Notes: generated by a model from the sequence alone, not told the origin. Numbered from the stretch's first letter, positions 822 through 36,219 are shown. The stretch is 64,000 nt of DNA from Mycobacteriales bacterium (GCA_035714365.1 DASTMB010000037.1:159647-223646); one strand, 5' to 3'. Program-made: numbers and translations.

Positions 822-2227
822 CCGAGAACCTGGCGAAGGTGCTGTTCGGGCCGCGGCCGCGGCGCGGCGTGGTGCTGGGGCTGCGGGTGCCGCAGCTCGC
901 TGTCCTCGTCGCCGGCGGCGCGGTGGCGACGGCGCTGCTCGGCCGGGGCCCGGCTGGGTCCCTCGCCGCACTCGTGGTCGCGGTCACGGCGGCCGGGGTG
1001 GCGCTGCTGCCGATCGGTGGGCGGCACGGTGACGAGTGGCTGCCGGTGTTGGCCCGCTACGCGACCCGGCCCCGCACGGCGCGGCGGCGCGTCGGCGCGC
1101 CGCCGGGCGGCGCGGCTGTTCTGGAGGTGCCGGGGGCGCGGCTGGAGCTGACGGCCGTCGAGGTGGCGGGTGGGCGGCGGGTCGGGGTGGTCGTCGACTC
1201 GCGGCGGCGGACGGTGACGGCGGTGGCGGCGCTGCGCGGCGCCGGGTCGCTGGCGCTGCTCGAACCCGGCGAGCAGTGGCGGCGCGGGCAGGGGTTCGCG
1301 GCGCTGCTCGCCGCACTCGGTCGGGACGGCGCGGCGGTCTTGCAGGTGCAGTGGGTGCACCGGACCCGCCCGATGCCCACCGTGGAACTGGACCGGGTCG
1401 CCGCGCCAGTGGCGCCGTCGCGGTGGGCGGCGGCCGACGCCTCCTACCGGGGACTGCTGGACACCGTCGGCGGGGAGCTGGTGCGCCACGACATGTTCCT
1501 CACGGTCACCGTCCGCGGCCGCGCCGGGGATCTCGACCCGCTGCTGCGCGAGTTGGCGACGGTGCAGGACAGCGCCGACGCGGCGGGCATCACCGTGACG
1601 GGGTGGCTGCCGCCGCGGCTGCTCGGCGCGGCGGTGCGCACCGGGTACGACCCCGGCGCCGTGGCGGTCGTCGCGGCGCGCGACGACGACCCGGACACGG
1701 CCGGCGTGCACCCCGGGGTAGCCGGGCCGGCGGCGACCCAGGAGGGGTGGCGGTGGTTCGCGTGCGACGGGGCGGTGCACGCCACGTACTGGGTCGCGGA
1801 GTGGCCGCGGGTGCCGGTCGCGGTGGACTTCCTCGCGCCGCTGCTGGTCGAGCTGCGGTGCGCGCACACCGTCGCGGTGGTGGCGCAGCCGCTGTCGTCG
1901 CGGGCGGCGCAGCGCGCGACCCGCGCCGCCCGCGCGACTGACCTGGCGGACGCGGACCTGCGGGCGCGGCTGGGGCAGCTCGACGGCGCGCGGGACGACG
2001 CGCAGGCCGACGCCGCGGACCAGCTCGACGCGGACCTCGCCGCCGGGCACACCCTGTTCCGGTTCCACGGCCTGCTCACCGTCACCGCCCCGACCCCCGA
2101 CGCGTTAGCGGCGGGCTGCGCGGAGGTGGAGCAGGCGGCGGCGCGGGCGCACCTGGACCTGCGCCGCCTCTACGGGCAGCAAGCCGAGGCGTTCACCTGG
2201 ACCCTGCCGGTCGGGGTCGGGCCATGA
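818..2227 (+). CDS. Conjugal-transfer membrane protein, possibly the N-terminal part of a split VirB4/TrbE-like component
   Basis: GTG start overlaps the upstream stop. Two hydrophobic helices near the N-terminus (LGLRVPQLAVLVAGGAVATALLG; LAALVVAVTAAGVALLPIG). Stop overlaps the ATG of the downstream Walker-A ATPase (ATGA at 2224-2227). No Walker motif of its own. Confidence 0.5.
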   Translation: MTENLAKVLFGPRPRRGVVLGLRVPQLAVLVAGGAVATALLGRGPAGSLAALVVAVTAAGVALLPIGGRHGDEWLPVLARYATRPRTARRRVGAPPGGAAVLEVPGARLELTAVEVAGGRRVGVVVDSRRRTVTAVAALRGAGSLALLEPGEQWRRGQGFAALLAALGRDGAAVLQVQWVHRTRPMPTVELDRVAAPVAPSRWAAADASYRGLLDTVGGELVRHDMFLTVTVRGRAGDLDPLLRELATVQDSADAAGITVTGWLPPRLLGAAVRTGYDPGAVAVVAARDDDPDTAGVHPGVAGPAATQEGWRWFACDGAVHATYWVAEWPRVPVAVDFLAPLLVELRCAHTVAVVAQPLSSRAAQRATRAARATDLADADLRARLGQLDGARDDAQADAADQLDADLAAGHTLFRFHGLLTVTAPTPDALAAGCAEVEQAAARAHLDLRRLYGQQAEAFTWTLPVGVGP

Positions 2228-3459
2228 CCGGCCGGCTGCCGTGGCAACTCGCCAGCACCGCCCAGCTCGCCGCCGCCCACCCGTGCCCCAGCGGCGGCGG
2301 CCCCGACGTGCCGGGCGCGCTGATCGGCGTCGACCAGCACGGGGCGCCGTTCTGCTTCGACGCGTTCGCCCTCTACGCGGCGCGGCGGTTGACGAACCCG
2401 AACATGCTCGTCGTCGGGGAGATCGGCGCCGGGAAGTCGGCGCTGGTCAAGACGCTGCTGTGGCGGCAGCAGGCGTTCGGGCACGCCGCGTGGGTCGCCG
2501 ACCCGAAAGGCGAGTACGGGCCGCTCGCCGCCGCGTCCGGCGTCACCCCGATCCGCCTCGACCCCGCCGGCGGCGCGCGGCTCAACCCGTTCGACAACGA
2601 CGACCACACCACCCCGGCGCAGCACGGGCCGCTGCTCGCCGCGCTCGCCGCGACCGCGGCCGGGCGGCCGCTGCGCCCCACCGAACACGCCGCCGCCGAC
2701 GTGGCGCTGACCGCCGCCGCCCGCCGCGGCCCGCTCCTGCTCCCCGCCGTCGTCGACGCCCTCCTCGACCCGGCCGAACCCGACGCCGCCGGGCTGCACC
2801 TGAGCGTCGACCGGCTCGCCGACGAAGGCCGCGACGTCGCGCTGGCGCTGCGCCGGCTGTGCCGCGGTGACCTCGCCGGGCTGTTCGACGGACCGACGAC
2901 GGTGCGGCCCCGCCACGACGACCCGCTCGTCGTCCTCGACCTGTCCGCCATCTACCAGCGTGCCCGCGACGCGCTGCCGCTCGCCATGACCTGCGCCACC
3001 GCCTGGTTACAGCACGCCGTCACCGCCGCCACCGCCCCGCACCGCTACGTCGTCCTCGACGAGGCGTGGGCGCTGCTCGCGCATCTGGACACCGCCCGCT
3101 GGCTGCAACAGTCCACGAAACTCGCCCGCGCCCGCGGTGTTGCGCACCTCATCGTGCTGCATCGCCTCTCCGACCTCACCGCCGCCGGCGACGCGCACTC
3201 CGAAACCGTCGCGCTCGCCCGCGGGGTGCTCTCCGACACCGGCGTCCGCGCCCTCTACCACCAGCCGCACAGCGAACTCGCCGCCGCCGCGACGCTGCTC
3301 GGGCTCAGCGACGCCGAAGCGGCGATCCTGCCCCACCTCGACCCCACCATCGGACTCTGGCTCATCGGCGACGCCCACCAGCTCGTCGCGCACCGCCTCG
3401 CCCCCGCCGAGCGGCCCATCGTCGACACCGACGACCGGATGATCGGCGACACCGCGTGA
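2224..3459 (+). CDS. VirB4/TraE-like conjugation ATPase (P-loop NTPase domain)
   Basis: Walker A VVGEIGAGKSALVKT and Walker B YVVLDEAWALL. Start and stop are both translationally coupled to neighbours (2224-2227 and GTGA at 3456-3459). Confidence 0.7.
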   Translation: MTGRLPWQLASTAQLAAAHPCPSGGGPDVPGALIGVDQHGAPFCFDAFALYAARRLTNPNMLVVGEIGAGKSALVKTLLWRQQAFGHAAWVADPKGEYGPLAAASGVTPIRLDPAGGARLNPFDNDDHTTPAQHGPLLAALAATAAGRPLRPTEHAAADVALTAAARRGPLLLPAVVDALLDPAEPDAAGLHLSVDRLADEGRDVALALRRLCRGDLAGLFDGPTTVRPRHDDPLVVLDLSAIYQRARDALPLAMTCATAWLQHAVTAATAPHRYVVLDEAWALLAHLDTARWLQQSTKLARARGVAHLIVLHRLSDLTAAGDAHSETVALARGVLSDTGVRALYHQPHSELAAAATLLGLSDAEAAILPHLDPTIGLWLIGDAHQLVAHRLAPAERPIVDTDDRMIGDTA

Positions 3460-5120
3460 ACCCCCGATCCAACCTGAATCACAAGCCCGCCGGCGACGCG
3501 GACACCACCGCCGCGCTGGTCGTCCTCGCCGCCGCCGCAGTCCTCCTACTCGCCGCGGCGCTTACCTGGGCGGCCGGCACCGGGGCGGCGCTCGCCACCG
3601 GCCGCGGCTGGCCCGCCCTCCCGGCCGGGGACGCGCCCGGCGCACTGCTGCGCCTCCCCCACCACCTCACCGACCCGGCCGCGGCGTGGCCCGACCCCTA
3701 CCGGCGCCACCTGCCCGGCCCGGTGCCCTACTACGCCGCGGCGCTCACCCTGCTCACCGCCGCTGGACTGCCGGCCGCCGCCGCGGCGCGGCGCTACCGC
3801 AGCCGGACACCGCAACGCCGGGCGCAGCCGTGGGCGCGCCGCGCCGAGGTTCGGCCGCTGCGCGTCCACGGCACCGCGGAGCCGGGACGGCTGCTGCTCG
3901 GGCAGCTCGGCCGCACCCGCCTCGCCGCGGAACCGCACCGCTCACTGCTCGTCTGCGCGCCCACCCGCGCCGGCAAGACGACCCGCATCGTCATACCGAA
4001 CGTGCAGGCGTGGAACGGGCCGGTGCTAGTCACCAGCGTCAAACCGGACGTGCTACACGCCACCGCCGACGCCCGCGCCGCCCGCGGCCCGGTGCTGCTG
4101 TTCGACCCCACCGGCTCCACCGGGATCGACAGCGTCAAATGGAGCCCGCTGCTCGGCTGCACCACCTACGCCGACGCCGAGCGGGTCGCGCGCTGGCTCA
4201 CCGACGCCGCCGCCGAGAACCGGTCCTCGGACAACGCCCGCTTCTGGGAACAGCTCGGCGCGAAACTCCTCGCGCCGCTGCTCTACGCCGCCGCCGGCAC
4301 CGGCCGCCACATGATCGACGTCGCCCGCTGGGTCGACCGCCGCGCCACCGCCGAACCCGAAGCCGCCCTACTCGGCCTCGGCGACCCCGACGCGCTCGAC
4401 GCGTGGGCCGCCAGCCGCGCCCGCGAAGAACGGCAACGGGAAAGCGTCTACGCCACCGCCGAAACGGTGCTCCGCGCCATCACCAGCCCCAGCGTCCGGG
4501 CCACCACCACCATCCGGCCCGAGGACCACGCCGACGAGCGCGTGTTCGACCCGGCGACGTTCCTCGACCGCGCCGCCACCCTGCACGTCGTCGCGCCGCC
4601 GCACGAACAAGACCGGCTCCGGCCCCTGTTCGAGGCGATCGTGCAGACCGTGCTCCGCGAGGCCGTCACCCGCCACCTCGCCACCGGGCAACCGCTCAAC
4701 CCGCCGCTGCTCGTCGTCCTCGACGAAGCCGCGAACATCGCCCCGCTGCGCGACCTCGCCCGCCACGTCAGCACCTGCGCCGCGCTCGGCGTCACGTTCC
4801 TCACCATCTGGCAAGACCTCGCGCAACTCCACCACCTCTACGGCGCCGAAGCCCGCACCATCGCGAACAACCACACCGGGCGGCTGTTCCTCGGCGGCAA
4901 CGCCGACCTCGACACCCTCACCACCCTGTCGCAGACCATCGGCGACACCACCCGAACCCGCGCCAGCACCACCATCGCCGCGCGGCACCGCTCCACCACC
5001 TACGCCGAACACACCGAACGCGCCGCCCCCGCCGACCAACTCCGCCAACTCCCCCTCGGCCAGGCGCTCCTCCTCTACGGAGGACTCCCACCCATCCGCG
5101 TCCGCCTGCCGCGGCCCTGA
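3456..5120 (+). CDS. Type IV coupling protein (VirD4/TraG/TcpA family)
   Basis: N-terminal TM helices; Walker A LLVCAPTRAGKTT; Walker B LLVVLDEAANIAPL. GTG start overlaps the upstream stop. Confidence 0.75.
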   Translation: MNPRSNLNHKPAGDADTTAALVVLAAAAVLLLAAALTWAAGTGAALATGRGWPALPAGDAPGALLRLPHHLTDPAAAWPDPYRRHLPGPVPYYAAALTLLTAAGLPAAAAARRYRSRTPQRRAQPWARRAEVRPLRVHGTAEPGRLLLGQLGRTRLAAEPHRSLLVCAPTRAGKTTRIVIPNVQAWNGPVLVTSVKPDVLHATADARAARGPVLLFDPTGSTGIDSVKWSPLLGCTTYADAERVARWLTDAAAENRSSDNARFWEQLGAKLLAPLLYAAAGTGRHMIDVARWVDRRATAEPEAALLGLGDPDALDAWAASRAREERQRESVYATAETVLRAITSPSVRATTTIRPEDHADERVFDPATFLDRAATLHVVAPPHEQDRLRPLFEAIVQTVLREAVTRHLATGQPLNPPLLVVLDEAANIAPLRDLARHVSTCAALGVTFLTIWQDLAQLHHLYGAEARTIANNHTGRLFLGGNADLDTLTTLSQTIGDTTRTRASTTIAARHRSTTYAEHTERAAPADQLRQLPLGQALLLYGGLPPIRVRLPRP

Positions 5121-5124
5121 CCCC

Positions 5125-5139
5125 GATTCAGCGCGAATC
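5125..5139. repeat. 15-bp dyad GATTCAGCGCGAATC (copy 1)
   Basis: Exact copy between convergent gene ends (5120 and 5163). Confidence 0.6.
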
Positions 5140-5162
5140 GGTGCGGCGCACTGACCTGGGGG

Positions 5163-5921
5163 TCACGGTGGGTCACGCCGTCGTCGGCCGACGGCGTTGA
5201 GGAACAGCCCGATCAGCACGACCCCGGTCACTGCCTCGCCGGCCACGAGGTAGCGGGCGTTGTCGCTGACCGGCACGATGTCGCCGTAGCCGACCGTCGT
5301 CACGGTCATGGCGCTGAAGTACAGCATCCGCCCGAACCGCTGCGTGGCGGCCGTCGGGTCACCGGCGTGCGCCTGGCGGAGCCGGCGGAACTCGTTCACC
5401 AACCCTGGACTCGCCGGAAGGTCCCAGTGCCGATAAACAATGGCGGCCTCCGACAGGTGGTGAATGTGCGGGGCCAAGCTGGCAAGACACGCTGAGCCGG
5501 CGGCGTCGGTGGGCTCGAATGCCAGCCACGCTATGCCAGGTTCGGCAGGGGGTGCCAGCGTCGGCCAGTCCTCGTATGAATGTAGGACCCCGTGACACTC
5601 AAGATCGGTGTGGGGGAAGAGTAGGCCGCCGCTTATCAGGGTGATGGTCAGCGATGGGTTGCTGCCGTCGGCCTGCCACATGACGTCGCCAACGAGCACG
5701 AAGTACCTCTCCTCATCACCCGTTCTCGTCGCGTTATATGCCACGTCCTGCAACTGCCAGTCGAAGTGCTGGTCGGCGGCGCGCAGGATGCCGGGTTCCC
5801 GGGCCAGGGTGGATTGGGTGAAGGCACCGTCCATGCGCGTGTAGCCCGCCGCGAACGCCGGGATGAGCGCCAGGTACGACAGGCCCCAGACGGCCGGTGA
5901 TCCGAGCAGCCGATGATGCAA
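5163..5921 (-). CDS. Potassium-channel-like protein (pore helix + TVGYGD selectivity filter + inner helix) with a very long loop between the outer TM helix and the pore
   Basis: C-terminal RMLYFSAMTVTTVGYGDIVPVSDNARYLVAGEAVTGVVLIGLFLNAVG matches KcsA-type pore/filter/TM2. The only candidate outer helix (SYLALIPAFAAGY) lies ~190 aa upstream. Start set at an in-frame TTG; the track ORF extends to 6191 through an Arg-rich, non-protein-like segment. Confidence 0.55.
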   Translation of the reverse strand: MHHRLLGSPAVWGLSYLALIPAFAAGYTRMDGAFTQSTLAREPGILRAADQHFDWQLQDVAYNATRTGDEERYFVLVGDVMWQADGSNPSLTITLISGGLLFPHTDLECHGVLHSYEDWPTLAPPAEPGIAWLAFEPTDAAGSACLASLAPHIHHLSEAAIVYRHWDLPASPGLVNEFRRLRQAHAGDPTAATQRFGRMLYFSAMTVTTVGYGDIVPVSDNARYLVAGEAVTGVVLIGLFLNAVGRRRRDPP

Positions 5922-6199
5922 CTTGTGGCGCGGCGCGTGCCGCCGGCGACGGAAGATCCACCGCGTCCGCGACGTACGGCCCTCGGCAACCGGCGACCGG
6001 CGCCGCCACCGCAGTCGCCGGTCAGTCCGCTCACGCTGACGCACACGGCAGACTTCGCCAATGTCTTGGGGCGCTCCTTGCGGATCGCGCTGAGTCCCGG
6101 CGGGAGCCGCATTTCCCTTGAATCGCGGTACAGCTCGTCGGCGGTGGCTCCTGCTGCGATCTCGATCTTGTTGTCGTGACCGGGCTCCCACAAAGGGCG

Positions 6200-6214
6200 G
6201 ATTCAGCGCGAATC
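6200..6214. repeat. 15-bp dyad GATTCAGCGCGAATC (copy 2)
   Basis: Exact copy in the 5921-6294 intergenic gap. Confidence 0.6.
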
Positions 6215-6293
6215 ACCCTGTCCGGCGCTGGCGCGGGGACGCGCCCGGGGCCGGTAGGCTCGCCCGGATGTGACGCCGCCGGTTGGAGTCGCG

Positions 6294-7772
6294 TTAGGCG
6301 GCGCGGTGCCAGGCGAAGGTGTCGGGGATTCCGTTGGTGTCGTCGGGGACGAGGTTGGGCGCGGCGCTGCTGAACGCGACGACGGACCCGTCGTCGCTGA
6401 CGGTGGGTTCGATGGCGTTGAGGGTGGCTTGGACGCCGTCGTTGGAGAGGGAGAGGAGTTGGTGCGCGCCGGTGGTCCGGTCGGTGAGGTACACGTCGCG
6501 GCCGCTGTCGTTCGTCACGGCTGGGGTGAGGTCGATGGGGCCGAGGTTGGTGGCAGCGCTTTCGTACGTGATCCAGCGGCCGTTGGCGCTGATCGCGGGG
6601 TTCGCGGAGAACTGGTCGGCGGGCAGCCCGCCGAGGCCGGTGGTGACGCGGCGCAGGGTGCCGGCGATCCGGTCGTAGAGGTAGATGTCGGGGGTGAGGT
6701 CGGGCTGGAGTTCCCGCCCGGCGGCGGTGGGGTCGCCGGGGACGAGGTTGTTGGCTTTGGACTGGAACACGATGTAGCGGCCGTCGCCGCTGAGGGTACG
6801 GTTCCCGCCACGATCAAAGTCGCTGAACGTCGTTTCGTTGTCCGCAGCCCAGCCCTCGGCGGAGCGGGAGATCATCCGGGTGCGCTTGGTGATCCGGTCG
6901 TAGAGAAAGACCTGGGTGAACCCTTCGCCGTTGAGGAACTGTCGGTGGAACGCCCATTCGGGTCCGTAGTCGGTGGTGTCGAAGATCGCCGCGTCGGCGG
7001 TCTGGAAGGTGATCCAGCGGCCGTCATCGGAGATCGACGCGTTGACCTTCTCGAAGCGGTGCGCGCGTGGGTGCGCGGAGCCGACCCGTTCGGTGCGGCC
7101 GGTGGTGAGGTCGCGGACGTAGACGTCCTGGACGAGGTTGTCGCCGTGACCGAGGGGGTCGTGCGGGACGAGGTTCGAGGCGCCGGATTGGAACACGACG
7201 TAGCGGCCGTTGCCGCTGATCGCGGGGTACTGCGCGTACGCGTTGTTCGGTTTGCCGTTGTAGCCGACCGAGACGGGGATGGTGCGGTGGCGCAGCCGGT
7301 CGCGCACGTACACGGCGAGCGTGTTCCCTGCTGGCTTGAAGCCGGGTACGAGCTGCCCGCAGCTGGTGAACGCGACGAACCGGCCGTCGCGGCTGACGGA
7401 GCTGGTTACCGGCGCGTCGGAGCCCTCCAATGTGGGGCAGCCGTGGGTGTCGGCGCTGACGAGTTCGGTGCGCCCGGTAGCGAGGTCCCGGGCGTAGACG
7501 TTGTAGCCGAGGCCGCCGTACCGGGCGGTGAGGCCGCAGTCCGCGGTGAGGCCACTGTCGTTGGAGGTAAAAGTGAGCAGGCGGCCGTTGCCGGACAGCG
7601 CAGGGTGGTCGGCGTAGCCGTACTGGGCGGTGCCTTGGCCGCCGCTGCTGCTCACTGATGCCCGCTCCAGTCGCCCGCTGGTCAGCGGCGGCGCGGCGCG
7701 GGTCGCGGGCGCGGCGGCGGCCACGGCGGCGAGGGCCGCTGCCGTGGCGAGGTGCGCTACCGCGCGCCGCAT
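6294..7772 (-). CDS. Secreted PD40/TolB-like beta-propeller repeat protein
   Basis: N-terminal signal peptide (MRRAVAHLATAAALAAVAAAAPATRA). Repeated ISxDGRxVxFxS ... D[VI]Y[VL]xD blades (DVYVRD, DIYLYD, DVYLTD). Confidence 0.7.
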   Translation of the reverse strand: MRRAVAHLATAAALAAVAAAAPATRAAPPLTSGRLERASVSSSGGQGTAQYGYADHPALSGNGRLLTFTSNDSGLTADCGLTARYGGLGYNVYARDLATGRTELVSADTHGCPTLEGSDAPVTSSVSRDGRFVAFTSCGQLVPGFKPAGNTLAVYVRDRLRHRTIPVSVGYNGKPNNAYAQYPAISGNGRYVVFQSGASNLVPHDPLGHGDNLVQDVYVRDLTTGRTERVGSAHPRAHRFEKVNASISDDGRWITFQTADAAIFDTTDYGPEWAFHRQFLNGEGFTQVFLYDRITKRTRMISRSAEGWAADNETTFSDFDRGGNRTLSGDGRYIVFQSKANNLVPGDPTAAGRELQPDLTPDIYLYDRIAGTLRRVTTGLGGLPADQFSANPAISANGRWITYESAATNLGPIDLTPAVTNDSGRDVYLTDRTTGAHQLLSLSNDGVQATLNAIEPTVSDDGSVVAFSSAAPNLVPDDTNGIPDTFAWHRAA

Positions 7773-7849
7773 GGTTGATCGTCCTCCGTGGCGGAGCCGG
7801 GCCGGCCCCTGGCATGTGCTTTCGACGGCGCCGGCCCGGCTCCCTGCCG

Positions 7850-10800
7850 TCAGGCTCCGGTGTCGGTGCTGCTCGTTGTCGTTGTGGTTCCGGTGACGGT
7901 GCAGCCGCTGGTCGCGCGGGTCTGCCCGTCGAGGTAGCTGGCGTTCGCCGTCCAGCAGACCTCGGCGGTCTCCCCGGCCGCGGGGTCGAACGAGGCGGAC
8001 GCCGGGTCGGTGACGGCCGCCTGGGCGGTGGCCGCGTCACCGGGCGCCGCGGTGTAGCTGCGGACGGGGTTGCCGGCGGCGTCGTGGACGGTGAGGGTGC
8101 AGCCGCTGATCGTCGTGGCGGTGGCGTCGGGTGACGCGGCGGCGGCGCAGCGGAACCCGTAGCCGGTGCTCGCCGGGTTCGTCGCGTCGCTGTCGTTGAC
8201 GCCTTCGTGCGGCGCCGCGCTCACGGCGGCGTCCCCGACGACCGTGTGGTCGGCGAGCGGGTTCGGCAGCACGAGCACCGTGACGGTCACCGGGTCGCCG
8301 AAGTAGGCGCTGTAGAGGCCGCCGGCGTTGCGGCGGATGTCGACGACGGGGCGGAACTGCTCGGTGATGAGCGCGCCCCACCACTTCGAGCCGGTGGGGG
8401 CGCGCAGCACCACGTCGAACACGACCTGCTGCCCGGGCCGGGCGGTGTCGGTGTTCACCGTGGCGCGGCACCGGGAGCAGGCGGTGCTCTTGGGCCAGGT
8501 AGCGGAGTCGTACAAGTCGCTGCTGTGCCCGTCCCGTCCGGCGGTGCCCAGGTAGACGACCTCGTTCGGGTACCAGGGGGCGGTGCGGGCGACGGTGTAG
8601 GCGAAGTGGACGGTCTGGGCGCCGCCGGCCGGGATGAGCAGCGGCGTGCCGACGCTGCCGGTGGCGGCGGCGACGGCGGTGGCGCCGAAGTTGCTGGTGG
8701 AGCGGGTGAGGGTGATCGCGGACCCGGACATCCACGGGCCGCCGTCGGCGACGAGGCGGAACGCGTCGGTGCCGCGGCTGCCGCCGGGGATCGACCCGTC
8801 GGGCTTGTACCGCAACCCGAAGGTGCCGGTGGAGCTGGACGGCGCGAAACCGGCGGGTTCGACGACCCCGAGACGGCCGGCGGAGAGCATCGTGGCGCGG
8901 CGGCAACTCAGCCACGGGTTACTCGCGTCGCGGGACGGGTCGGCGCTGCCGCCGACCGGCGGGTCGGCGACCGGACTGCACTGGTCGACGGCGCCGCTGC
9001 TCTGGTCGACGACACCGAGGCGGGTGGCGTGCGCGCCGCTGGCGAACCACGGCATGTTGCCGGTGTTCGTCACGGCGACGGCGCCGCTGGTGTAGCGGTG
9101 CCCGCGGGTGTACGTGCCGTCCGGCTCGGTGTGCGGGCGCGTCTTGGTGACGACGCGGTAGCTGTACCGGGGAGTGAACCCGCCGTAGGTGCAGCCGCCG
9201 GTCGCTCCGTCGTTGGACCACAGGTAGGTGACGCCGTTGGGGCCGACGGGCAGGTTCGCGCACAGGTCGGCGTTCTCCTGGCCGCGGCCGTCGAGCCACG
9301 CGTCGAGGTGCGGGTCGGTGACGGTCTCGGCGTACTCGTGGGACGCGACCTGCCGGAGCCCGTTCGAGGTGCCGCCGACGACGGTGCCGCATCCGTAGGT
9401 CCAGTCGTAGACCGGGGTGCGGCCGGGGAAGTTGATGCCGCTGTAGGCCATGTACTTCGTGCCGCCGCTGGTGCCGCCGCCGACCGTGGCGTAGGTGTGG
9501 AAACCGCACGGGAACCGCTGCTCGCCGCTGCTGACGAGCGGCGAGCCGGGCTGGAGAAACACCATGAACTGCGCGTCGGTGCTGATCGGCCAGCGATTCG
9601 CCTTCGCCGCCCGCAGCGCCTCCGCGGCGAGGTCACCGGACTGCGTGACCGCCGGCGGGCTGCTGGTGTCGACCCACGTGCCGCCGACGCGCATCGTGGC
9701 GGACACCGCGCCGGTGCTGTCGTAGTGCTGGCTCAACACGGCCTGGAAACCGCTGCTGTTCATGCTGGCGAACATCGCCGCGATGTCGCCGCGGTAGCCG
9801 GTCAGCGCCGGCCACTTCGGCCCCCAGAAGATCGGGTACACCACGGGGTGGTGCTGCACGGCGCCACCGTTCCAGCGCAGCGGCGGCGCGCAGGGTTCAG
9901 CGTTGCGGGTGTAGCAGCGGCCCTTCACGACACCGGTCGCGTCGAGGTCGCCGACCGCCGTGAGCGCCCCGGCCGTCGCCGTGGCGCTGGCGCCGGGGGC
10001 CGCGGCGGGGGGCTCGTCGTGGGTGACCGGCGCGGGCGCGGCGGTGACGTCCTCGGCGCTGATCTCCCACTCGGGCGCGCCCACGTGGACGCCGCCGCCG
10101 GCGTCGGCGGCGAGCAGGGCGTCGAGCGTGTCGTGCAGCTCGGTGGCGGCGTCCCCGGTCGCCGCCAACGCTGCCCCGGCGTCAGCCACGCCCGCGACCT
10201 GTCCGCCCAGCGCGATGAGGAGCTGGTCGCCGTCGGCGAGCGCGGCGTGGATACGCGCGGTCGGCAGGATCGGCAGGGGGCGGGAGAGGACGACCTGGGC
10301 GGCGCCCACGGTGTCGAGCAGGTCGGCGGGCGTCGGTAGGCCGGTGACGACCTCGTCGGCGACGGCGCCGGCCTGAGCCGCGACCGCGGTCGCGACGGCG
10401 CTCAGCCCATCGACGACCGCGGCCGGGTCCGTCGGTTGGACGGTGCCGATCGCGTCGGTGCGCACCCACGTCGTCGCCTGCACGGCGCTGACGCGCAGCG
10501 CGTCGAGGGCGACCGCGGCGCCGCCCGCCCAGGCGGTGAGCGTGGCGAGGGCCTGGTCGAGGTCGACCTGCGGCAACGCGGCGCGCAGCGCGGTGCTCCG
10601 CTGGGCGGACAGGGACGTGCGGTAGTCGTTGAGGGTCGCGACGTCGCGCTGCGCGCTGTTCGGTGTCGCGGCGTCGATGAGGTGGGTGAGGTCGGCGACC
10701 GCGGTGAGGGCAGGCAGCCAGGCGGTGACGTCGGTGCTGGCGGCCAGCGGTGTCGCCTCGGCGGCCAGGGCCGGCGGCGGCAACACGGCGGTGACGCACG

Positions 10801-10873
10801 CGAACGCCGCAGCGGTCAGCGTGAGCGTCGCCGCCCGGCGCCGCCACCTGGTGCGGATGAGTCTGCTGGACAT
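7850..10873 (-). CDS. Large secreted protein (1007 aa), function unknown
   Basis: Internal ATG at 10873 gives a signal peptide (MSSRLIRTRWRRRAATLTLTAAAFACVTAVLPPPALAAEA). Upstream part of the track ORF is P/S/T/R-rich junk. Ala-rich helical N-domain, a central Gly/Trp/Tyr-rich domain (VVYPIFWGPKW, HEYAETVTDP) and beta-rich C-terminal domains. Confidence 0.55.
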   Translation of the reverse strand: MSSRLIRTRWRRRAATLTLTAAAFACVTAVLPPPALAAEATPLAASTDVTAWLPALTAVADLTHLIDAATPNSAQRDVATLNDYRTSLSAQRSTALRAALPQVDLDQALATLTAWAGGAAVALDALRVSAVQATTWVRTDAIGTVQPTDPAAVVDGLSAVATAVAAQAGAVADEVVTGLPTPADLLDTVGAAQVVLSRPLPILPTARIHAALADGDQLLIALGGQVAGVADAGAALAATGDAATELHDTLDALLAADAGGGVHVGAPEWEISAEDVTAAPAPVTHDEPPAAAPGASATATAGALTAVGDLDATGVVKGRCYTRNAEPCAPPLRWNGGAVQHHPVVYPIFWGPKWPALTGYRGDIAAMFASMNSSGFQAVLSQHYDSTGAVSATMRVGGTWVDTSSPPAVTQSGDLAAEALRAAKANRWPISTDAQFMVFLQPGSPLVSSGEQRFPCGFHTYATVGGGTSGGTKYMAYSGINFPGRTPVYDWTYGCGTVVGGTSNGLRQVASHEYAETVTDPHLDAWLDGRGQENADLCANLPVGPNGVTYLWSNDGATGGCTYGGFTPRYSYRVVTKTRPHTEPDGTYTRGHRYTSGAVAVTNTGNMPWFASGAHATRLGVVDQSSGAVDQCSPVADPPVGGSADPSRDASNPWLSCRRATMLSAGRLGVVEPAGFAPSSSTGTFGLRYKPDGSIPGGSRGTDAFRLVADGGPWMSGSAITLTRSTSNFGATAVAAATGSVGTPLLIPAGGAQTVHFAYTVARTAPWYPNEVVYLGTAGRDGHSSDLYDSATWPKSTACSRCRATVNTDTARPGQQVVFDVVLRAPTGSKWWGALITEQFRPVVDIRRNAGGLYSAYFGDPVTVTVLVLPNPLADHTVVGDAAVSAAPHEGVNDSDATNPASTGYGFRCAAAASPDATATTISGCTLTVHDAAGNPVRSYTAAPGDAATAQAAVTDPASASFDPAAGETAEVCWTANASYLDGQTRATSGCTVTGTTTTTSSTDTGA

Positions 10874-10970
10874 GGTGTAGGGCCTCCCTGATCCGTGGTG
10901 GAGGCGCCGACCGCGAAAGGCGACGAACGCTGCGCATCCGCGCAGCGACCCCCGTCTGTCGTTCGCCGCC

Positions 10971-11771
10971 TCATTGCACGTACAACGGCGGCCACGCCGC
11001 CGCCCCGTGTGGCGGCACCGATTCGCCCGTCGGTGTCGCGTCTCCTGCGCGTGATGGTGCAACCGGCGCCGACGCGCCAGTGTCCGCGTCGTGGCGTGGT
11101 GCGGACGTGAGGACGCCGTTGCGTCCGGTGAACACCCGGTGCGCTGGCAGGTACCCGCCTGGGTGCTCGGGTTGGTGCGCGACGAGGACGCTCGTGTCCT
11201 CCCGGTCCGTGGTGACCGTGATCGCGGCCGTCGCCTCGGCGCGTGCCGCCCGGTTGAGGGTGTCGAGGAGCCCGTCGACGAGGAGCAGCCGGGGCCGCGC
11301 CGCGACCGCGACCGCCAGGGCGAGCAACGCGGCGTCGTCGGGGTTGAGCGACGAGGAGGCGCGGTCACGTCGCGCGGCGAGGGTCGGGAACCGGTCGAGG
11401 ACCTGTGCGATCCGCCGCGCCCGCGCCGCCGCGTCGCCGTTCCAGGGCTGGTGTCGCGCCGCGCCGAGCGCGAGCCACGCGGTGACGGGCGCGGCGTTGG
11501 GCGCGGCGGGGGTGGCGACGTACTCGACGCCGGCGCGGCGACGCTGGGCGGGGGTGAGGGTGAGCAGGTCGGTGTCGTCGTTGAAGGCGGCCGATGCGCC
11601 GATGGGGGGCAGGGCACCGGCGAGAGTACGGAGCAGCACCGACCCGGTTCGGTCACCGTGAATCACGATGATCGCACCGGTCGGTACGTCGAGGTCCAGC
11701 CACCCGACCGCGCCGGGGCGCAGCCGCACGCCGACCGACCGCAACGCGATCACCAGACCTACCTCGCTCAC
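10971..11771 (-). CDS. ABC-ATPase-like protein with a degenerate Walker A (predicted catalytically inactive)
   Basis: IIVIHGDRTGSVLLRTLAG replaces the GxxGxGKS/T P-loop. LSLNPDDAALLALAVAVAARPRLLLVDGLLDTL resembles the ABC signature/Walker B with D substituted by G after the LLLVD stretch. First gene of the minus-strand chain. Confidence 0.45.
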   Translation of the reverse strand: MSEVGLVIALRSVGVRLRPGAVGWLDLDVPTGAIIVIHGDRTGSVLLRTLAGALPPIGASAAFNDDTDLLTLTPAQRRRAGVEYVATPAAPNAAPVTAWLALGAARHQPWNGDAAARARRIAQVLDRFPTLAARRDRASSSLNPDDAALLALAVAVAARPRLLLVDGLLDTLNRAARAEATAAITVTTDREDTSVLVAHQPEHPGGYLPAHRVFTGRNGVLTSAPRHDADTGASAPVAPSRAGDATPTGESVPPHGAAAWPPLYVQ

Positions 11772-11848: not shown

Positions 11849-11863
11849 GATTCAGCGCGAATC
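11849..11863. repeat. 15-bp dyad GATTCAGCGCGAATC (copy 3)
   Basis: Exact copy in the divergent promoter region 11771-11988. Confidence 0.6.
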
Positions 11864-11987: not shown

Positions 11988-12941
11988 ATGGACCGCACCA
12001 AGCAGTGGAGGGTGGCGGACCGGCACCGGGTGGAACTGGTCCGCTACCTGACGGCCCGCACCGGCGCCGCGGACATCGCCGAGGACGCCGCCGCGGAAGC
12101 GATCGCGGCCGCCGGGTCCGCTCATCTCCGCGACGAGCAGCACGCGCAGGCGTGGCTGCGCCGCGTCGGCTGGCATCGCTGCGTGGACGAGTTCCGGCAC
12201 CGCCGCACCCCGGAGTCGCTGTCGCGGGTCGCGGCGCCGTCGTCGACGCCCAGTGCGGAGGAGGTCGCCCTTGAGCATGACCTGGCGGTCCGGGTCCGGG
12301 CCGCGGTGGCGACGTTGCCGCCGCAGCAGCGCGTGGTCGTCACCGCCTACGCGCAGGGTGAGACGGTGCGGGTGATCGCTGCGCGACGGCGGCAGACCGT
12401 GAAGGCGGTGGAAGCGCAGCTCACTCGCGGGCTGGCGCGGGTGCGCGACGCGCTCAACGCGGGGGTCGCCGTGGTGTCGGGTCGGCTGCGGCTTCGCCGC
12501 GCTGCCGCGGTGTCGGCGGCGTCGATGGTCGTCACGGTCAGCGCCGCGCTGTGGCTCGGCGCGACCATCCCGGCGCCGGCCGCCACCTCCGGCGCGGCCG
12601 CCCACCCGGTGCGGTCGGACGCGTCCGGCGCTGTCGTCCGCGTCACCCACCGGGAGCGCACGCCAGCGGCGCGCCCGCAGTCGCCGGCGCCGCCGCACCG
12701 GCGGCCGCACCGCACGCCTGCCGTCCACCGGGCGGGGCACCGCGCGGCGTCGACGCTGCTCGCCCCGCCCGGGGTCACGGGTCCGGCCGGTATCTCGGTC
12801 CAACCGGGCAGCGTGGATCGGGACGGCGGCCGTCTCGGTGACGGGTTCGTCGCCGACGTGCTCGCCTGCATCGGGCATGGCGTGCGGGTCGAGGAGCAGC
12901 GGGTGTCGTGTCGGCCCGACGCCACCGTCTACATGCTGTAG
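11988..12941 (+). CDS. ECF sigma factor with a C-terminal TM helix and extracytoplasmic extension (membrane-tethered sigma/anti-sigma-like fusion)
   Basis: Region 2 (ELVRYLTARTGAADIAEDAAAEA ... AWLRRVGWHRCVDEFRHRR). Region 4 HTH (LPPQQRVVVTAYAQGETVRVIAARRRQTVKAVEAQLTRGLARVRDAL). Hydrophobic helix AAAVSAASMVVTVSAALWLGA, then ~130 aa. RBS GGGGGAGG upstream of the ATG. Confidence 0.65.
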   Translation: MDRTKQWRVADRHRVELVRYLTARTGAADIAEDAAAEAIAAAGSAHLRDEQHAQAWLRRVGWHRCVDEFRHRRTPESLSRVAAPSSTPSAEEVALEHDLAVRVRAAVATLPPQQRVVVTAYAQGETVRVIAARRRQTVKAVEAQLTRGLARVRDALNAGVAVVSGRLRLRRAAAVSAASMVVTVSAALWLGATIPAPAATSGAAAHPVRSDASGAVVRVTHRERTPAARPQSPAPPHRRPHRTPAVHRAGHRAASTLLAPPGVTGPAGISVQPGSVDRDGGRLGDGFVADVLACIGHGVRVEEQRVSCRPDATVYML

Positions 12942-13363
12942 CCGACGACGATGCCTTCGCTGCCGGGCTGCCACTTGAAGATCGCGGAGATCGGCGTCGG
13001 CGGGTCGACGTCGCTGCGGTAGGTGAACAGCACGTCGTAACTTCCGGTGTCGGCGCCGTTCTTCGGCACCGTCCAGCAGACCTGCGCGGTCGGCTGCGTC
13101 GCCGTCGACGTCGTGTAGTTGATCGCGGTGCCGTTGCTGCGCGCGCCGGTGAACTCGATGGTCCACAGCGGCCCGGTCGTGGGCGGGACCCGCAGTTCGC
13201 CGTTGCCGCAGATGGTCTGTCCGCTGGTGGTGAACGACGCGGTGAACCACATGTGCGGCCGTTCCACCTGGGGCAGCGGATCGGTGTCCGCGTGGGCGCC
13301 GTGGGCGGTGAGGAGGGTTCCGGCGGCCGTGGACGCGACGAGCACGACGCGGGCGACGCGCAT
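12929..13363 (-). CDS. Small secreted protein (144 aa), unknown function
   Basis: Signal peptide MRVARVVLVASTAAGTLLTAHGAHA. Immediately downstream of, and co-directional with, the sigma-fusion gene. Confidence 0.5.
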   Translation of the reverse strand: MRVARVVLVASTAAGTLLTAHGAHADTDPLPQVERPHMWFTASFTTSGQTICGNGELRVPPTTGPLWTIEFTGARSNGTAINYTTSTATQPTAQVCWTVPKNGADTGSYDVLFTYRSDVDPPTPISAIFKWQPGSEGIVVGYSM

Positions 13364-13381: not shown

Positions 13382-14500
13382 TCAGCCTCCCGGCGGCGGG
13401 GGGAGGGGAACATCGTAATGCGGGTCCCCGTCGGTTCGGCACTGTACGGCGTCCTGCTGCTCGGGCACCCACGGGCAGACGGGGGCGACCTCTTCCTGGA
13501 CCTCGAATCCGGGCACCGCGGAGACGCTGAGCACGTCGGCGTTCACCGGTGACGTGGTGCAGGTCGGCTGTCCGTCGATCGGCACGCACGCCCCGACCTC
13601 CCCGTCGGGCAGCGCGCCCGGCAGTCGCGGCAGCCGCACGCCGGTCACGAGCCGGCGGGCCGCTGCTGCCGGTGCCCGGCGCAGCAGCCGGCGCGCGGTG
13701 CGGGTCACCCCCACCGCGTCGCCGGTCGCGACCGCGGCGGCGGCGTCGCCGACACCATCGAGGACCCGGGCGACGGCGCGGGGGACCCGGTGCAGCGAGA
13801 TCGGCACCGGCAGTGGCTGTGTGGCGACGGCGGTCATGAAGACGCCGACCAGCGCCGCGTTCGCCACCGCGACCATCGCCGTCGACACCGCCCCGGGTGC
13901 GGCCGACCGGCGCCGAAGCCGGCCCCGCAGCGCGGCGAGGAACGCGGCGATGAGCCCGCCCCGTTGGCGCACGGCGTGCAGCGCCCGCGTCACCCGTTTC
14001 CGCGTCGCGGCCTCGGTCAGTCCCGTCTCGTCCGCGAGTTGGGAGTACGGCGCGGCGTCCACGTAGCGGCGGCGCAGCAACTCCTGCACCTCGGCGGGCA
14101 GCTCCTCGTAGGCCATGACGACGCGCGTCGCCGCGGTGACCCGCGGGGTCGCCCATAGCGAGACCGCGCCGTCCGGCGGATACGGGACCAGGGCCGGGCG
14201 GCGCCGCGCCCGCCGCCGCGCGTCCGTCGCCGCGTGACGTGCCGCGGTGAACAGCAGCGCGCGCCGGTGGTCGTCGTCAGTCAGCGCCGCCCACGACCGG
14301 TACACCGCGAGGTAGGCGCGCTGCGCCACGTCGTCACACTCGCTGCGATCCACGTACGCCAGTGACGACAGGAAGCGGTAGAGACCCGCGACCGTCTCGG
14401 CGTGGAACTCCTCGAACTCGCGCCCGATCCCCCGCGCGGTCTGACACGCGACCACCGACTGCCCCTTCACGTCCACGCCGCAGGCTGCGGCCACCCGCAC
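13382..14500 (-). CDS. ECF sigma factor fused to a TM helix and a Cys-rich C-terminal domain
   Basis: Region 2 (FEEFHAETVAGLYRFLSSLAYVDRSECDDVAQRAYLAVYRSW). Region 4 (LPAEVQELLRRRYVDAAPYSQLADETGLTEAATRKRVTRALHAVRQR). Hydrophobic segment AVSTAMVAVANAALVGVFMTAV. C-terminal domain with six Cys. Confidence 0.6.
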   Translation of the reverse strand: MRVAAACGVDVKGQSVVACQTARGIGREFEEFHAETVAGLYRFLSSLAYVDRSECDDVAQRAYLAVYRSWAALTDDDHRRALLFTAARHAATDARRRARRRPALVPYPPDGAVSLWATPRVTAATRVVMAYEELPAEVQELLRRRYVDAAPYSQLADETGLTEAATRKRVTRALHAVRQRGGLIAAFLAALRGRLRRRSAAPGAVSTAMVAVANAALVGVFMTAVATQPLPVPISLHRVPRAVARVLDGVGDAAAAVATGDAVGVTRTARRLLRRAPAAAARRLVTGVRLPRLPGALPDGEVGACVPIDGQPTCTTSPVNADVLSVSAVPGFEVQEEVAPVCPWVPEQQDAVQCRTDGDPHYDVPLPPPPGG

Positions 14501-14610: not shown

Positions 14611-14826
14611 AGCGTCCACCCCCCGACCGGGTAGATCCTCGACGGAGCGCCACCTCCCCCCGGTGGCGCTCCCCGCCCGTCGGCGAAAGTCCGCACTCCT
14701 TCGCCGAGGTGTCCCAAAAGGCGCCCCCGCGGCGGTGTCACGGGTGGGACCGGGCGTTTCTGTAGGGGCGCCCGGTCCCCCTCACCCGGCGCGAACCGAC
14801 GCGCCGCCCGTCCAGGGGGAGTCCCC

Positions 14827-15759
14827 ATGCCCGACCTAACCGCCGTCGGCATCACCGCCGACGACGAACCCGTCTACCGCGTCCTGCTCGACACCGACCG
14901 GCACCTCACCGTCGACCAGCTCGCCGCCGCCCTCGACCAACCGACCCGCGCCGTCGAGGACGCGATCGAACGACTACAACACCGCGGCTTCGTCGCCGAC
15001 GACGACCACGGCGCCGTCACCGCCGTCCCGGCCTGCGTCGCCGTCACCCGCGCCGCCGCGCGCCGGGAACAGGTTCTGCTCGACCAGCTCGCCGCGGTAC
15101 GCCGCGCCCGCAGCCAGTACACCGCCACCGCGCTACCGGTCGACCCGAGCCCGCACAGCGGCTCCCCGTTCCTCGGCATCATCACCGACCCCGGCGAACT
15201 GCACCGCTGGCGTAGCCGCGTCGCGGCGATGGCCGTCGATACCCTGCGCCGCACCGTCGTCGACGACGCGCCGCTACCCGAGCACGACCCCGACGTCGTG
15301 CGATTCGACCTGTATCAGCAGTCGGCGCTCACCGACGCCACCCGCCTCGCCGCGATCGACGACCCCGACCGGGGGCACCAGGTCCACGTCGTTGCCGCGC
15401 CGCTGCCCCCGCTGCTCATCGCCGACACCACAGTCGCCCTGTTCGAGCTCGGCCCGAGTAGCGGGTTCGTGCTCTACCCGTCGCGGCTCCTCGACGCGCT
15501 GCACGACTACTTCGCCCTCCTGTGGCGCGCCGCCGTGCCCATAGGCGCCCGCGACCCGGAAGGAGCCTGGCAACTCGACCAGGACCGGCGGCGGCTGCTG
15601 CGCCTACTCGCCACCGGCGCAAAGGACCAGGCGATCGCGCACCTGCTCGGCCTCGGATTGCGGACCGTCACCCGCCAGGTTGGTGAACTCCTCCGCGCCT
15701 TCGACGTGGAGACCCGCTTCCAACTCGGGGTGCAGGCCGCTGTCCACGACCTGCTCTAG
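14827..15759 (+). CDS. LuxR-family transcriptional regulator (paralog A)
   Basis: C-terminal GerE/LuxR HTH (RRRLLRLLATGAKDQAIAHLLGLGLRTVTRQVGELLRAFDVETRFQL). N-terminal winged-helix-like segment. RBS GGGGGAG before the ATG. Confidence 0.65.
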   Translation: MPDLTAVGITADDEPVYRVLLDTDRHLTVDQLAAALDQPTRAVEDAIERLQHRGFVADDDHGAVTAVPACVAVTRAAARREQVLLDQLAAVRRARSQYTATALPVDPSPHSGSPFLGIITDPGELHRWRSRVAAMAVDTLRRTVVDDAPLPEHDPDVVRFDLYQQSALTDATRLAAIDDPDRGHQVHVVAAPLPPLLIADTTVALFELGPSSGFVLYPSRLLDALHDYFALLWRAAVPIGARDPEGAWQLDQDRRRLLRLLATGAKDQAIAHLLGLGLRTVTRQVGELLRAFDVETRFQLGVQAAVHDLL

Positions 15760-18677: not shown

Positions 18678-18860
18678 TCACTAACCCCCGAATCGCCACG
18701 CCAATGCGGAATGACGCTGATGATTCGCAGGAGGCGGTGCATTTCCTAGATAAGCGCAGTAGGAATGTTGTGCAAATGCACACACTGGAATGGTCGGGAC
18801 GGGTGGTGGGGCGTGGGCGCTGCGGTAGGACGGAGGGGAGGCGACGGAGGGGACGACCCG

Positions 18861-19838: not shown

Positions 19839-19853
19839 GATTCAGCGCGAATC
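19839..19853. repeat. 15-bp dyad GATTCAGCGCGAATC (copy 5)
   Basis: Exact copy between convergent gene ends 19820 and 19869. Confidence 0.6.
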
Positions 19854-22252: not shown

Positions 22253-22372
22253 CAGTTCCTCCGTAGGGGGTGCAGCGTCGGCGAGTCCGGCGCCAGTAGA
22301 GGTAGTCGCGCGCGCGGCCGCGATGCCGTGGCTCTCTCGGGCTATTGGCGTGAGTCAGCCAGCGGGAGCCCC

Positions 22373-22387
22373 GATTCGCGCTGAATC
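22373..22387. repeat. 15-bp dyad GATTCGCGCTGAATC (copy 6, opposite orientation)
   Basis: Reverse complement of GATTCAGCGCGAATC in the divergent region 22252-22498. Confidence 0.6.
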
Positions 22388-28766: not shown

Positions 28767-28886
28767 GGCCGAGCCTGTGGTGGCCGACGAGCTCCGCTGC
28801 GCTGCTGAACGTCACCCGCCGGTCCGGCGTCCGCTACCCGCGTCGCCGTGTCCGAAGCGCGGTGGCCGGCGGCGGGTGGTGTGGGC

Positions 28887-32545: not shown

Positions 32546-32953
32546 GAGTGGAGTCCTCCCGTCACTGGGCCTGCGGACCGGGTGTGGAGGCGTCCTGACG
32601 GCCGCCTCAAAAACCGGGTCTCCCGACGCAGCAGTGGGGCGCGGGCGCAGGGGCCCCGGGCAAAGGACGGCCGGAGGCCGAGGCGCGGCGAAATAAGCGG
32701 AGCCGGCCGAGGGCCGGCGCAGCGCGTCGCGCCGGTCCTTTGTCTGGGTGGGGCGCCCGTGCCACGCTGAGGCGGCGGGAGAGCCGGTTTGAGGGCTCTT
32801 TCAGCGCCGCCCGTAGGGCGGCTCCACATTGCCCCGCAGGGGCCGCCGCCGCAGGCGGCGCTGCTCTGTTCGGGTGGTTGTCGGGAGCTGCCGCGACATT
32901 GCGTGCCGCGTCGGCGAACCCATCACGGCGGCGGGACCGCATTCCGGCCGCTG

Positions 32954-36117: not shown

Positions 36118-36219
36118 CGCGCAGAACACGGCTGCCAGGCTGTGGGCGCGCGCTGACGCGTTCGTGCAAACCCGCTGGTTCGGATGGAGTGTGGTGTTAG
36201 GCCGCGCGGTGAGATCCAA

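Follow-up and report, generated by a model that had tools for sequence, protein, structure and literature searches.

The question raised by the locus described here is whether four neighbouring genes, all read from the minus strand, act together as one functional module or were collected independently by the same mobile element. They lie between positions 5163 and 11771 of a 64,000-nt stretch of DNA from a Mycobacteriales bacterium (GCA_035714365.1 DASTMB010000037.1:159647-223646), and this whole stretch is referred to below as the window. In the direction of reading they comprise a gene for a protein resembling the nucleotide-binding domain (NBD) of ATP-binding cassette (ABC) ATPases (10971-11771; 266 aa, 260 aa in the NCBI call), the gene of a secreted 1007-aa protein, here called BIG (7850-10873), a gene for a PD40 (TolB-like) beta-propeller protein of 492 aa with a signal peptide (6294-7772), and a gene for a K+-channel-like protein of 252 aa (JGI call) with two transmembrane helices, a so-called 2TM channel (5163-5921). 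An earlier note on this DNA proposed that the four genes form a single module carried as cargo of a mobile element. The second half of this proposal was borne out, as the genes sit inside a conjugative element: type IV secretion system (T4SS) genes lie to their left, a TrwC relaxase (25095-28811) and ArdC (31607-32800) to their right, and housekeeping genes (galactokinase, aldo-keto reductase, GH2) begin only near 38-40 kb. As to the first half, a probability of about 60% is given here to a different answer, namely that three independent cargo units stand side by side, as a mosaic, within an actinobacterial T4SS conjugative element. BIG together with the PD40 gene would make up the first unit, the ABC-like gene the second and the channel gene the third.

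One module or a mosaic

Number, strand and position of the four genes are as stated earlier, and all four open reading frames (ORFs) are coding, judged by third-position GC and the frame plot. The earlier description of short gaps holds for the 97 nt between the ABC-like gene and BIG and for the 77 nt between BIG and the PD40 gene, but not for the channel gene, whose annotated start (5921) is preceded by 372 nt. The channel gene is set apart also by its GC content at third codon positions (GC3), which amounts to 0.82 compared with 0.87-0.96 in its neighbours (ABC-like gene 0.87, BIG 0.96, PD40 gene 0.91), and by its own upstream copy of a 15-nt motif described further below. A scan for promoters and terminators was uninformative, no site of the sigma-70 type being found in this high-GC DNA.

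The evidence which carries the mosaic reading comes from co-occurrence. When the four window proteins were compared by tblastn with 147 loci, BIG and PD40 made the sole co-occurring combination; the channel was found in no BIG locus, and the ABC-like gene was missing from all 147 loci compared, except for its own copy in the locus that contains the window (L001). Synteny around BIG was established by exact-protein look-ups of BIG homologues, which gave five independent contigs. In four of the four informative loci (L142, with BIG homologue P0065; L145, P0063; L146, P0067; L147, P0069) a PD40 gene of 482-518 codons follows BIG within about 90-115 nt, and its product is 39-41% identical to the window PD40 protein over the full length; the fifth contig (L141, P0061) stops about 200 bp past the BIG gene. 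The remaining neighbours differ each time, with a glycosyltransferase, an Xre-type helix-turn-helix (HTH) protein, a 148-aa protein of no assigned family or thioredoxin-like/LmeA genes upstream, and uncharacterised genes, an extracytoplasmic function (ECF) sigma gene or DUF4395 downstream. Relatives of the window PD40 protein (tblastn, E <= 1e-5) were seen just beside full-length BIG orthologues and in none of roughly 130 loci which carry the central domain of BIG without the rest of the protein. Because the pair is kept in every informative locus and the other genes change, BIG and PD40 are a conserved two-gene secreted unit, and the four-gene chain is not.

It remains to be weighed whether the four genes could nevertheless be one envelope-sensing or ion-flux effector module, in which a dead ABC protein would be the regulator, the secreted protein and the propeller the sensors and the K+ channel the effector. 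The genes adjoin each other in the cargo region and point the same way, three of the four encode envelope or extracellular proteins, and membrane-anchored ECF-type sigma genes adjoin them. The contigs with BIG homologues are moreover short (5-12 kb), so that more distant associations lie beyond their reach, which weighs against the mosaic reading. This proposal of the earlier note has nevertheless been largely refuted by the synteny test, in which conservation is limited to BIG and PD40; homologues of the channel travel solo in the nine neighbourhoods described below, which include an integron cassette of one gene and a prophage moron, the ABC-like gene is an orphan, and the channel gene is separated by its long gap and a 15-mer site of its own. 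A single module is thus very improbable. Another possibility is that BIG and PD40 are no cargo at all and serve conjugation by the T4SS element, as a surface adhesin or as a factor for mating aggregation or cell-wall remodelling. It draws on the location of the pair between the T4SS genes and the relaxase, on the size, secretion and repeated beta-sandwich domains of BIG, and on the 15-mer placed upstream of the ABC-BIG-PD40 block in the same way as before the SLT gene of the element. T4SS genes were met in none of the four homologous loci, where the neighbours are of the kinds listed above, and no match was obtained among 72,556 plasmids, although, the contigs being short, this is weak evidence overall. 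The conjugation role is judged improbable, if less so than the single module.

The mosaic of three units is therefore retained, and with it the four-gene finding dissolves into ordinary mosaicism of the cargo of an integrative and conjugative element (ICE); adjacency within such cargo is by itself no evidence for a module. What is left are two uncharacterised families which lack a Pfam model or a curated model of their own: a zincin-like secreted domain with the pattern HExxE...DP, and a channel in which a long insert separates the first transmembrane helix (TM1) from the pore. In addition, BIG and PD40 are newly defined as a conserved gene pair.

The ABC-like gene

The first gene of the chain was described earlier as an ABC-type ATPase deprived of the P-loop lysine and serine, and this has been confirmed with the addition that the protein is even more degenerate than claimed. 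In the alignment to the nearest true ABC ATPases its Walker A motif reads GDR--TGSV instead of GxNGxGKST, a 2-residue deletion being accompanied by the loss of Lys and Ser; the signature LSGG[EQ] has become LNPDD, and Walker B has changed from LLLxDE to LLLVDG, that is from DE to DG. No Pfam match was obtained, ABC_tran included, and the best NCBIfam match, UrtE (E = 1.9e-10), reaches 40.6 bits against a cut-off of 285.8. With NBDs of the LivF/UrtE type the protein shares its overall NBD-like character and 24-34% identity over the alignment; it differs from them in the absence of Walker A, the signature and the Walker B Glu, in scores far under the family cut-offs, and in its surroundings, since no permease or binding-protein gene was found near it. 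It is flanked by a sigma gene and by the gene of BIG. Judged by its motifs the product is non-catalytic and would contribute no ATPase activity.

The gene may be either a decaying relic or a lineage-specific pseudo-ATPase. That the ORF is a functionless remnant of a LivF/UrtE-type transporter ATPase has nearly even odds. Each catalytic motif is gone, there is no adjacent permease gene, a search of 5.8 billion proteins returned, besides the protein itself, distant true ABC ATPases at E = 1e-6 or weaker and no close homologue, and the C-terminal tail of about 60 aa is of low complexity. On the other hand, the frame is intact across 266 codons with a clean frame signal and a GC3 of 0.87, and a gene with a ribosome-binding site, BIG, begins 97 nt downstream; pseudo-ATPases with regulatory roles are also known to exist. 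In the mosaic of three units the ABC-like gene would perhaps be co-transcribed with BIG and PD40 at this locus and would stand outside their module elsewhere.

The secreted protein BIG and its partner

The BIG gene starts with ATG at 10873 behind a GGGAGG ribosome-binding site. In its product a signal peptide is followed by an N-terminal third that is helical and rich in Ala, by the central zincin-like domain (about aa 326-576, 9146-9898, minus strand), by two beta-rich domains marked by 'NTGxxxW' and by a Cys-bearing C-terminal domain. Neither the whole protein nor its pieces matched Pfam or NCBIfam, and no sequence match in the PDB was obtained with BIG or with the profile of its central domain. 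At one stage BIG passed for an orphan, the word-indexed search having returned the protein itself and nothing else, and this was overturned when 1.84 billion cluster representatives were scanned exhaustively with HMMER, with 951 matches at E <= 1e-3 and 17 at E <= 1e-30. About a dozen of them are full-length homologues, 30-41% identical and of the same layout. The remaining relatives have the central domain alone in common with BIG; it usually follows a signal peptide directly, and the proteins vary widely in size. Central-domain-only relatives were confirmed in 393 cases, of which the best 80 are listed. Soil Actinomycetota, Chloroflexota and Dormibacterota harbour them, as do a few archaea (Nitrosopolaris, Thermoplasmata), the loci concerned being L009-L140. 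The zincin-like domain family counts more than 900 cluster representatives from soil bacteria and archaea. In these proteins the domain is fused to varied C-terminal domains, such as FN3, Ig-like and DUF2510. No Pfam domain covers the central-domain region in any protein of the BIG family examined. Species-representative genomes and JGI metagenome contigs yielded relatives of the central domain and no full-length BIG orthologue, and the 72,556 plasmids mentioned above hold no BIG homologue.

The central domain is marked by a conserved set of residues. In the window protein these are C456-G-F-H459, then S-H512-E513-Y-A-E516-T-V-T-D520-P521, followed by W...E-N-A-D-L-C, and the family consensus can be written as C[AG]xH ... 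[ST]HE[YF]xExxTDP ... W ... E[IV][AG]DxC. The positions C456, H459, H512, E513, E516, D520, P521, W526, E533, D536 and C538 are near-invariant; across 40 sequences H512, E513, E516, D520 and P521 are conserved in 90-100%. Glutamate stands where the second His of HExxH would be expected in 37 of these 40, and HExxH is thus not the motif of the family. In the AlphaFold2 (AF2) model of the domain, which has a mean predicted local distance difference test score (pLDDT) of 80.4, a predicted template modelling score (pTM) of 0.81 and 173 of 300 residues at pLDDT >= 90, the His-Glu pair falls in the C-terminal half of a long helix (model residues 201-218), similarly to the active-site helices of zincins. 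A Foldseek comparison of the model with the PDB placed metzincin catalytic domains in all of the top 42 ranks, among them ADAM17/TACE, ADAM33, snake-venom adamalysins and ADAMTS, with archaemetzincin at rank 47; the matches are weak, with E about 1e-2, TM-score about 0.35 and probability up to 0.91.

The domain can therefore be compared with metzincin and zincin peptidases such as ADAM17, adamalysins and archaemetzincin, with which, by prediction, it may share an alpha/beta fold and a His-Glu-bearing 'active-site' helix. The zinc-binding motif of metzincins is HExxHxxGxxH, whereas that of BIG is HExxExxxDP, and BIG differs further in extra conserved Cys pairs, in the C[AG]xH strand, in the weak fold score and in the lack of a sequence match to any Pfam family or PDB chain. 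Since the motif is HExxE and not HExxH, the domain is labelled zincin-like and not metzincin. BIG would most likely be an extracellular hydrolase or a binding platform with the propeller as its partner; if a hydrolase, it would have a non-canonical HExxE...DP site followed by beta-sandwich domains. Several points weigh against enzymatic activity. The fold match has an E-value of about 1e-2 and a TM-score of 0.35, the second His is replaced, and the clade of P0065 and P0067 lacks both E516 and D520, making catalysis uncertain.

The PD40 protein matches Pfam PF07676 with 64 bits (cut-off 20.9, E = 1e-17). It is not TolB, as the TolB equivalog TIGR02800 gives 20.6 bits against a cut-off of 343, and no sequence match in the PDB was found. 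PD40 repeats, and the pairing of a propeller with a putative hydrolase, recall TolB/PD40 propellers and the propeller-protease pairings of the Tricorn type, and a faint 'Tricorn_N' match appears in PD40 homologues. The likeness ends where the window protein, besides not being the TolB equivalog, belongs to an actinobacterium without any Tol-Pal context and has a separate secreted protein as its partner.

Architecture of the channel

The last gene of the chain encodes what the earlier note took for a textbook K+ selectivity filter with pore helix and inner helix, and the assignment has been confirmed. Pfam Ion_trans_2 (PF07885) matches with E = 1e-14 and 54.6 bits (cut-off 22.5) over profile positions 22-75 of 79, so that the outer helix falls outside the match. 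The filter TVGYGD (5280-5297, minus strand, aa 209-214) is invariant across the family and agrees with the pattern T-[VI]-G-[YF]-G-D. Pore helix, filter and second transmembrane helix (TM2), with a short Arg-rich C-terminus after it, are encoded at 5175-5339 (minus strand). In the AF2 model, built on an alignment of the family, the pore helix spans residues 195-209 and TM2 residues 220-249, at a mean pLDDT of 82-95 in 10-residue blocks. The part from pore helix to TM2, filter included, can be superposed on KirBac3.1 and KcsA over 56 residues with a root mean square deviation of 1.5 A and a probability of 0.99; the family profile matches KcsA with E = 8e-11. The possibility raised earlier that the TVGYGD segment lies outside a membrane pore is thus at odds with the structure prediction. 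The protein presumably forms a tetrameric K+-selective pore.

The outer helix was likewise suspected to be remote, leaving room for a giant turret, and this is what was found. TM1 (5838-5897, minus strand, aa 9-28), the candidate outer helix, is the sole N-terminal hydrophobic helix, is conserved and confidently predicted (mean pLDDT 95-96 in 10-residue blocks), and lies beyond the Pfam match, separated from the pore helix by an insert of 166 aa (5340-5837, minus strand). A search of 5.8 billion proteins gave about twenty full-length relatives, 27-35% identical and 250-320 aa long, all of them built on one plan with the insert included: a WGxxYLLLIPxFAxxY helix, an FYHST-type motif, a poorly alignable stretch, the RMLYxSxxTxTTVGYGDIxP segment and a conserved inner helix. 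Among 18 family members the insert is 125-171 aa long and hypervariable, mean pairwise identity amounting to 44% in the TM1 region, 15% in the insert and 58% in pore and TM2. Arg-rich segments stand before TM1 and after TM2, and by the positive-inside rule an in-out-in topology fits, by which the insert would be placed outside the cell. The window protein ends 8-10 residues past TM2, with no cytoplasmic gating domain in this member.

Compared with KcsA and KirBac, the window channel has the same canonical TVGYGD, the same pore helix, a glycine-hinged inner helix and two transmembrane helices per subunit. It differs from them in the insert of the family, the turret of KcsA being short, in the absence of an RCK or a Kir C-terminal domain, and in the fact that members of its family are single mobile genes. 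Two-pore-domain K+ (K2P) channels offer an architectural likeness and nothing beyond it: the helices after TM1 (residues 43-66) and before the pore helix (172-185) project outwards in the model, and one match of the channel profile, TASK-1, reaches into the region before the pore helix. Each chain of the window family contains one Ion_trans_2 stretch and one filter, in contrast to the two pores of K2P channels; its insert is about three times longer, beta-rich and unconserved, and gave no evidence of a dimeric cap.

The start of the gene deserves a comment. The annotated start codon is TTG at 5921, and the ORF is open upstream to a GTG at 6191, 9 nt from a copy of the 15-mer, with another in-frame GTG at 6044; the distance from the PD40 gene would thus be 372, 249 (GTG 6044) or 102 nt (GTG 6191). 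The stretch 5922-6191 (minus strand) is Arg-rich with a poor coding signal (GC3 0.66), and the homologues have Arg/Lys-rich N-termini of 10-40 aa. The true start may be 6044 and not 5921. No Shine-Dalgarno sequence precedes any of the three candidate starts, and the transcript may be leaderless. A riboswitch or another structured leader in the 372-nt gap was considered and rejected, there being no Rfam match at E <= 1 and a folding z-score of -0.61 against shuffled sequences.

Distribution and possible role of the channel family

The genomic context of the channel family was examined in nine neighbourhoods. No partner gene is common to all nine, and none of them carries an ABC-like, BIG or PD40 gene. 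A conserved upstream partner was sought in the genes of about 325 aa which precede the homologues in L002 and L003, and was rejected as these two proteins are unrelated. The homologue of Vibrio diabolicus (L005) is a single-gene integron cassette bracketed by attC sites at 7909-8030 and 8853-8943, within a 17-kb locus that has 24 attC-type repeats; the window copy is no such cassette, its flanking 15-mers being an element-wide motif and not attC. One further homologue is found beside IS110 and one between DDE-transposase/resolvase and rve genes. Another homologue shares its island with MmeI and PIN-TPR genes and with PD-T4-3 (E = 4e-59), the last being two genes away, and yet another belongs to an island with HicA, DUF4258 and a HEPN/PD-Lambda-3_B-like gene. 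In L148 from IMG/VR the homologue stands between AbiH and NsnA/HEC-04-like genes, next to a large serine recombinase, and in an IMG/VR prophage it is inserted on the opposite strand, next to the genes of the head protease and the major head protein. At the Pfam level, the neighbourhood L008 has no sign of defence genes apart from a weak match to a Polbeta nucleotidyltransferase. Among plasmids, matches to the channel were confined to the pore. The family is thinly and unevenly spread, and the surrounding DNA has a GC content of 26%, 46% and up to about 72%, the last value being that of the channel region of the window. Such a pattern is typical of a conflict or adaptation gene that is self-sufficient and moves horizontally.

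The L148 homologue (5512-7059, on a contig of 26% GC) has an extra C-terminal extension of about 230 aa without a Pfam match, and some members of the family may be gated from inside as well.

In the favoured model the channel would be an element-borne membrane device whose sole variable, sensor-like part faces outwards and which would let K+ leak and depolarise the cell upon an external or envelope cue, for example phage attack or a competing element. Such a role is favoured because of this outward-facing variable part and because relatives occur in defence islands, prophages and integron cassettes. That the channel dissipates the K+ gradient or the membrane potential on an external cue, with abortive infection or exclusion as the outcome, is put forward tentatively, from its anatomy and gene neighbourhood, at somewhat less than even odds. 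The guess of abortive infection or exclusion made in the earlier note agrees in this respect with the neighbourhoods of the homologues, by association and for the channel alone, for which a defence or exclusion role is plausible; the other three genes have no part in it. Membrane-depolarising proteins of abortive infection and exclusion include RexB of phage lambda and the transmembrane effectors of CBASS and other systems. Like these proteins, the window channel is borne by a mobile element and would, by prediction, run down ion gradients, and its homologues are placed among abortive infection, restriction-like and toxin-antitoxin genes and in prophages. It differs from the class in lacking any sequence relation or partner sensor gene, in having a true K+ filter and in giving no PADLOC match. 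A more specific version would make the turret-insert K+ channels an unrecognised single-gene anti-phage or exclusion system, in which the hypervariable outer domain detects a phage or a competing element and opens the K+ pore, with collapse of the membrane potential (abortive infection) or blocked entry of DNA as the result. It would explain why the gene moves solo among ICEs, prophages, integron cassettes and defence islands with a GC content from 26% to about 72%, and is nevertheless unlikely as a whole.

A number of points weigh against a defence role. None of the four window proteins matches PADLOC-DB v2 at E <= 0.01, and neither does the homologue in L148 at E <= 1e-5; literature searches found no paper linking the channel family to defence and nothing relevant on the family in integron contexts or on prokaryotic channels with large turrets. 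The association with defence genes is anecdotal, coming from nine neighbourhoods, and the insert itself was modelled mostly at low confidence, residues 69-168 being largely below pLDDT 50. The competing explanation is that of an accessory K+ channel of ordinary function, in ion or osmotic homeostasis or in the control of the membrane potential, with the mobile contexts incidental and the insert a structural cap or a pH or ion sensor. The canonical filter, the name 'potassium channel family protein' given by NCBI to the relatives, the absence of a matching defence model and the locus L008 speak for it, and so does the abundance of adaptive genes other than defence genes in integron cassettes and ICE cargo. 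It is harder to reconcile with the patchy distribution over hosts and over DNA of 26% to about 72% GC, with the hypervariability of the outer domain, and with the repeated placement among abortive infection, restriction-like and toxin-antitoxin genes or in a prophage structural module, where conflict genes fit better. Plain K+ homeostasis is accordingly held to be rather unlikely, a little behind the depolarising role. If the depolarising role of the channel is correct, an outside-sensing, truly K+-selective channel would join the conflict genes of mobile elements, and nature would have provided a minimal 2TM channel whose turret accommodates a large grafted domain of ligand type, a case of interest to the structural biology of channels.

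An element-specific motif

The 15-nt near-palindrome GATTCAGCGCGAATC, of the form GATTC-N5-GAATC, is present in seven exact copies, all of them intergenic and all within the element. In the window these are located at 5125-5139 (plus strand), between the converging 3' ends of the VirD4 and channel genes, at 6200-6214 (plus strand), upstream of the channel gene, at 11849-11863 (plus strand), in the divergent region between the ABC-like gene and a sigma gene, at 19839-19853 and at 22373-22387 (minus strand). The other two lie left of the window (18450-18464 and 20642-20656 of L001). Six near copies begin at 16981, 26800, 29132, 31987, 35185 and 35902 and are confined to the element too. Between 36 and 64 kb of the window the motif has zero copies (0.06 expected by chance), and it is absent from 146 other loci compared.

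Its positions are promoter-like (before the SLT gene, the channel gene and the ABC-like gene) or between convergent 3' ends, and the motif is probably the operator of an element-encoded regulator. Candidate binders are two TrmB/LuxR-type double-HTH regulators (14635-15759 and 18750-19820, plus strand). With one copy ahead of the ABC-like gene, one on either side of the channel gene and none between the ABC-like gene, BIG and PD40, the layout agrees with two separate units, ABC-BIG-PD40 and the channel, controlled by one regulator of the element, as far as can be inferred from site positions. The exact 15-bp direct repeats on either side of the channel gene (5125 and 6200) also suggested an inserted cassette with a target-site duplication or an att site, a reading which was rejected in view of the element-wide occurrence of the motif.

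The conjugative element and its other cargo

On the left of the four-gene chain the T4SS block includes a VirB4-like gene (2224-3459) and a VirD4/TraG-like gene with its 3' end at 5120, and the TrbL and SLT genes are located farther left. On the right, ArdC follows beyond the relaxase. The same DNA is represented in JGI metagenome 3300034009, where contig Ga0334944_000010 (335,661 bp) has a gene whose product is identical to the channel protein. The GC content of the DNA is about 70-77% and falls to 0.645 at 36000-38000, at the switch from element-type to housekeeping genes. This interval probably is the right end of the conjugative element. It contains no tRNA gene, the sole tRNA in the window being a tRNA-Arg at 46056-46134, and no integrase was identified within the window.

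Two sigma genes adjoin the chain on its right, at 11988-12941 (plus strand, 317 aa) and at 13382-14500 (minus strand, 372 aa), both with sigma-70 regions 2 and 4, and a small secreted protein of 144 aa is encoded between them (12929-13363). Both sigma proteins are unusually long, region 4 being followed by a hydrophobic stretch and a long extension, and belong to the ECF type of sigma factor with a built-in membrane or extracytoplasmic tail. In L146 an ECF sigma gene (5069-5710) directly follows BIG and PD40, and its product is weakly similar to the second sigma factor of the window (E = 8e-5). As sigma genes are adjacent both in the window and in L146, the BIG-PD40 complex possibly is under ECF-sigma control. 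The cargo between the four genes and the relaxase includes, besides the two TrmB/LuxR-type regulators, a secreted trypsin-like protease (20819-22354, minus strand), the trypsin domain of which covers aa 325-498 of the open frame.

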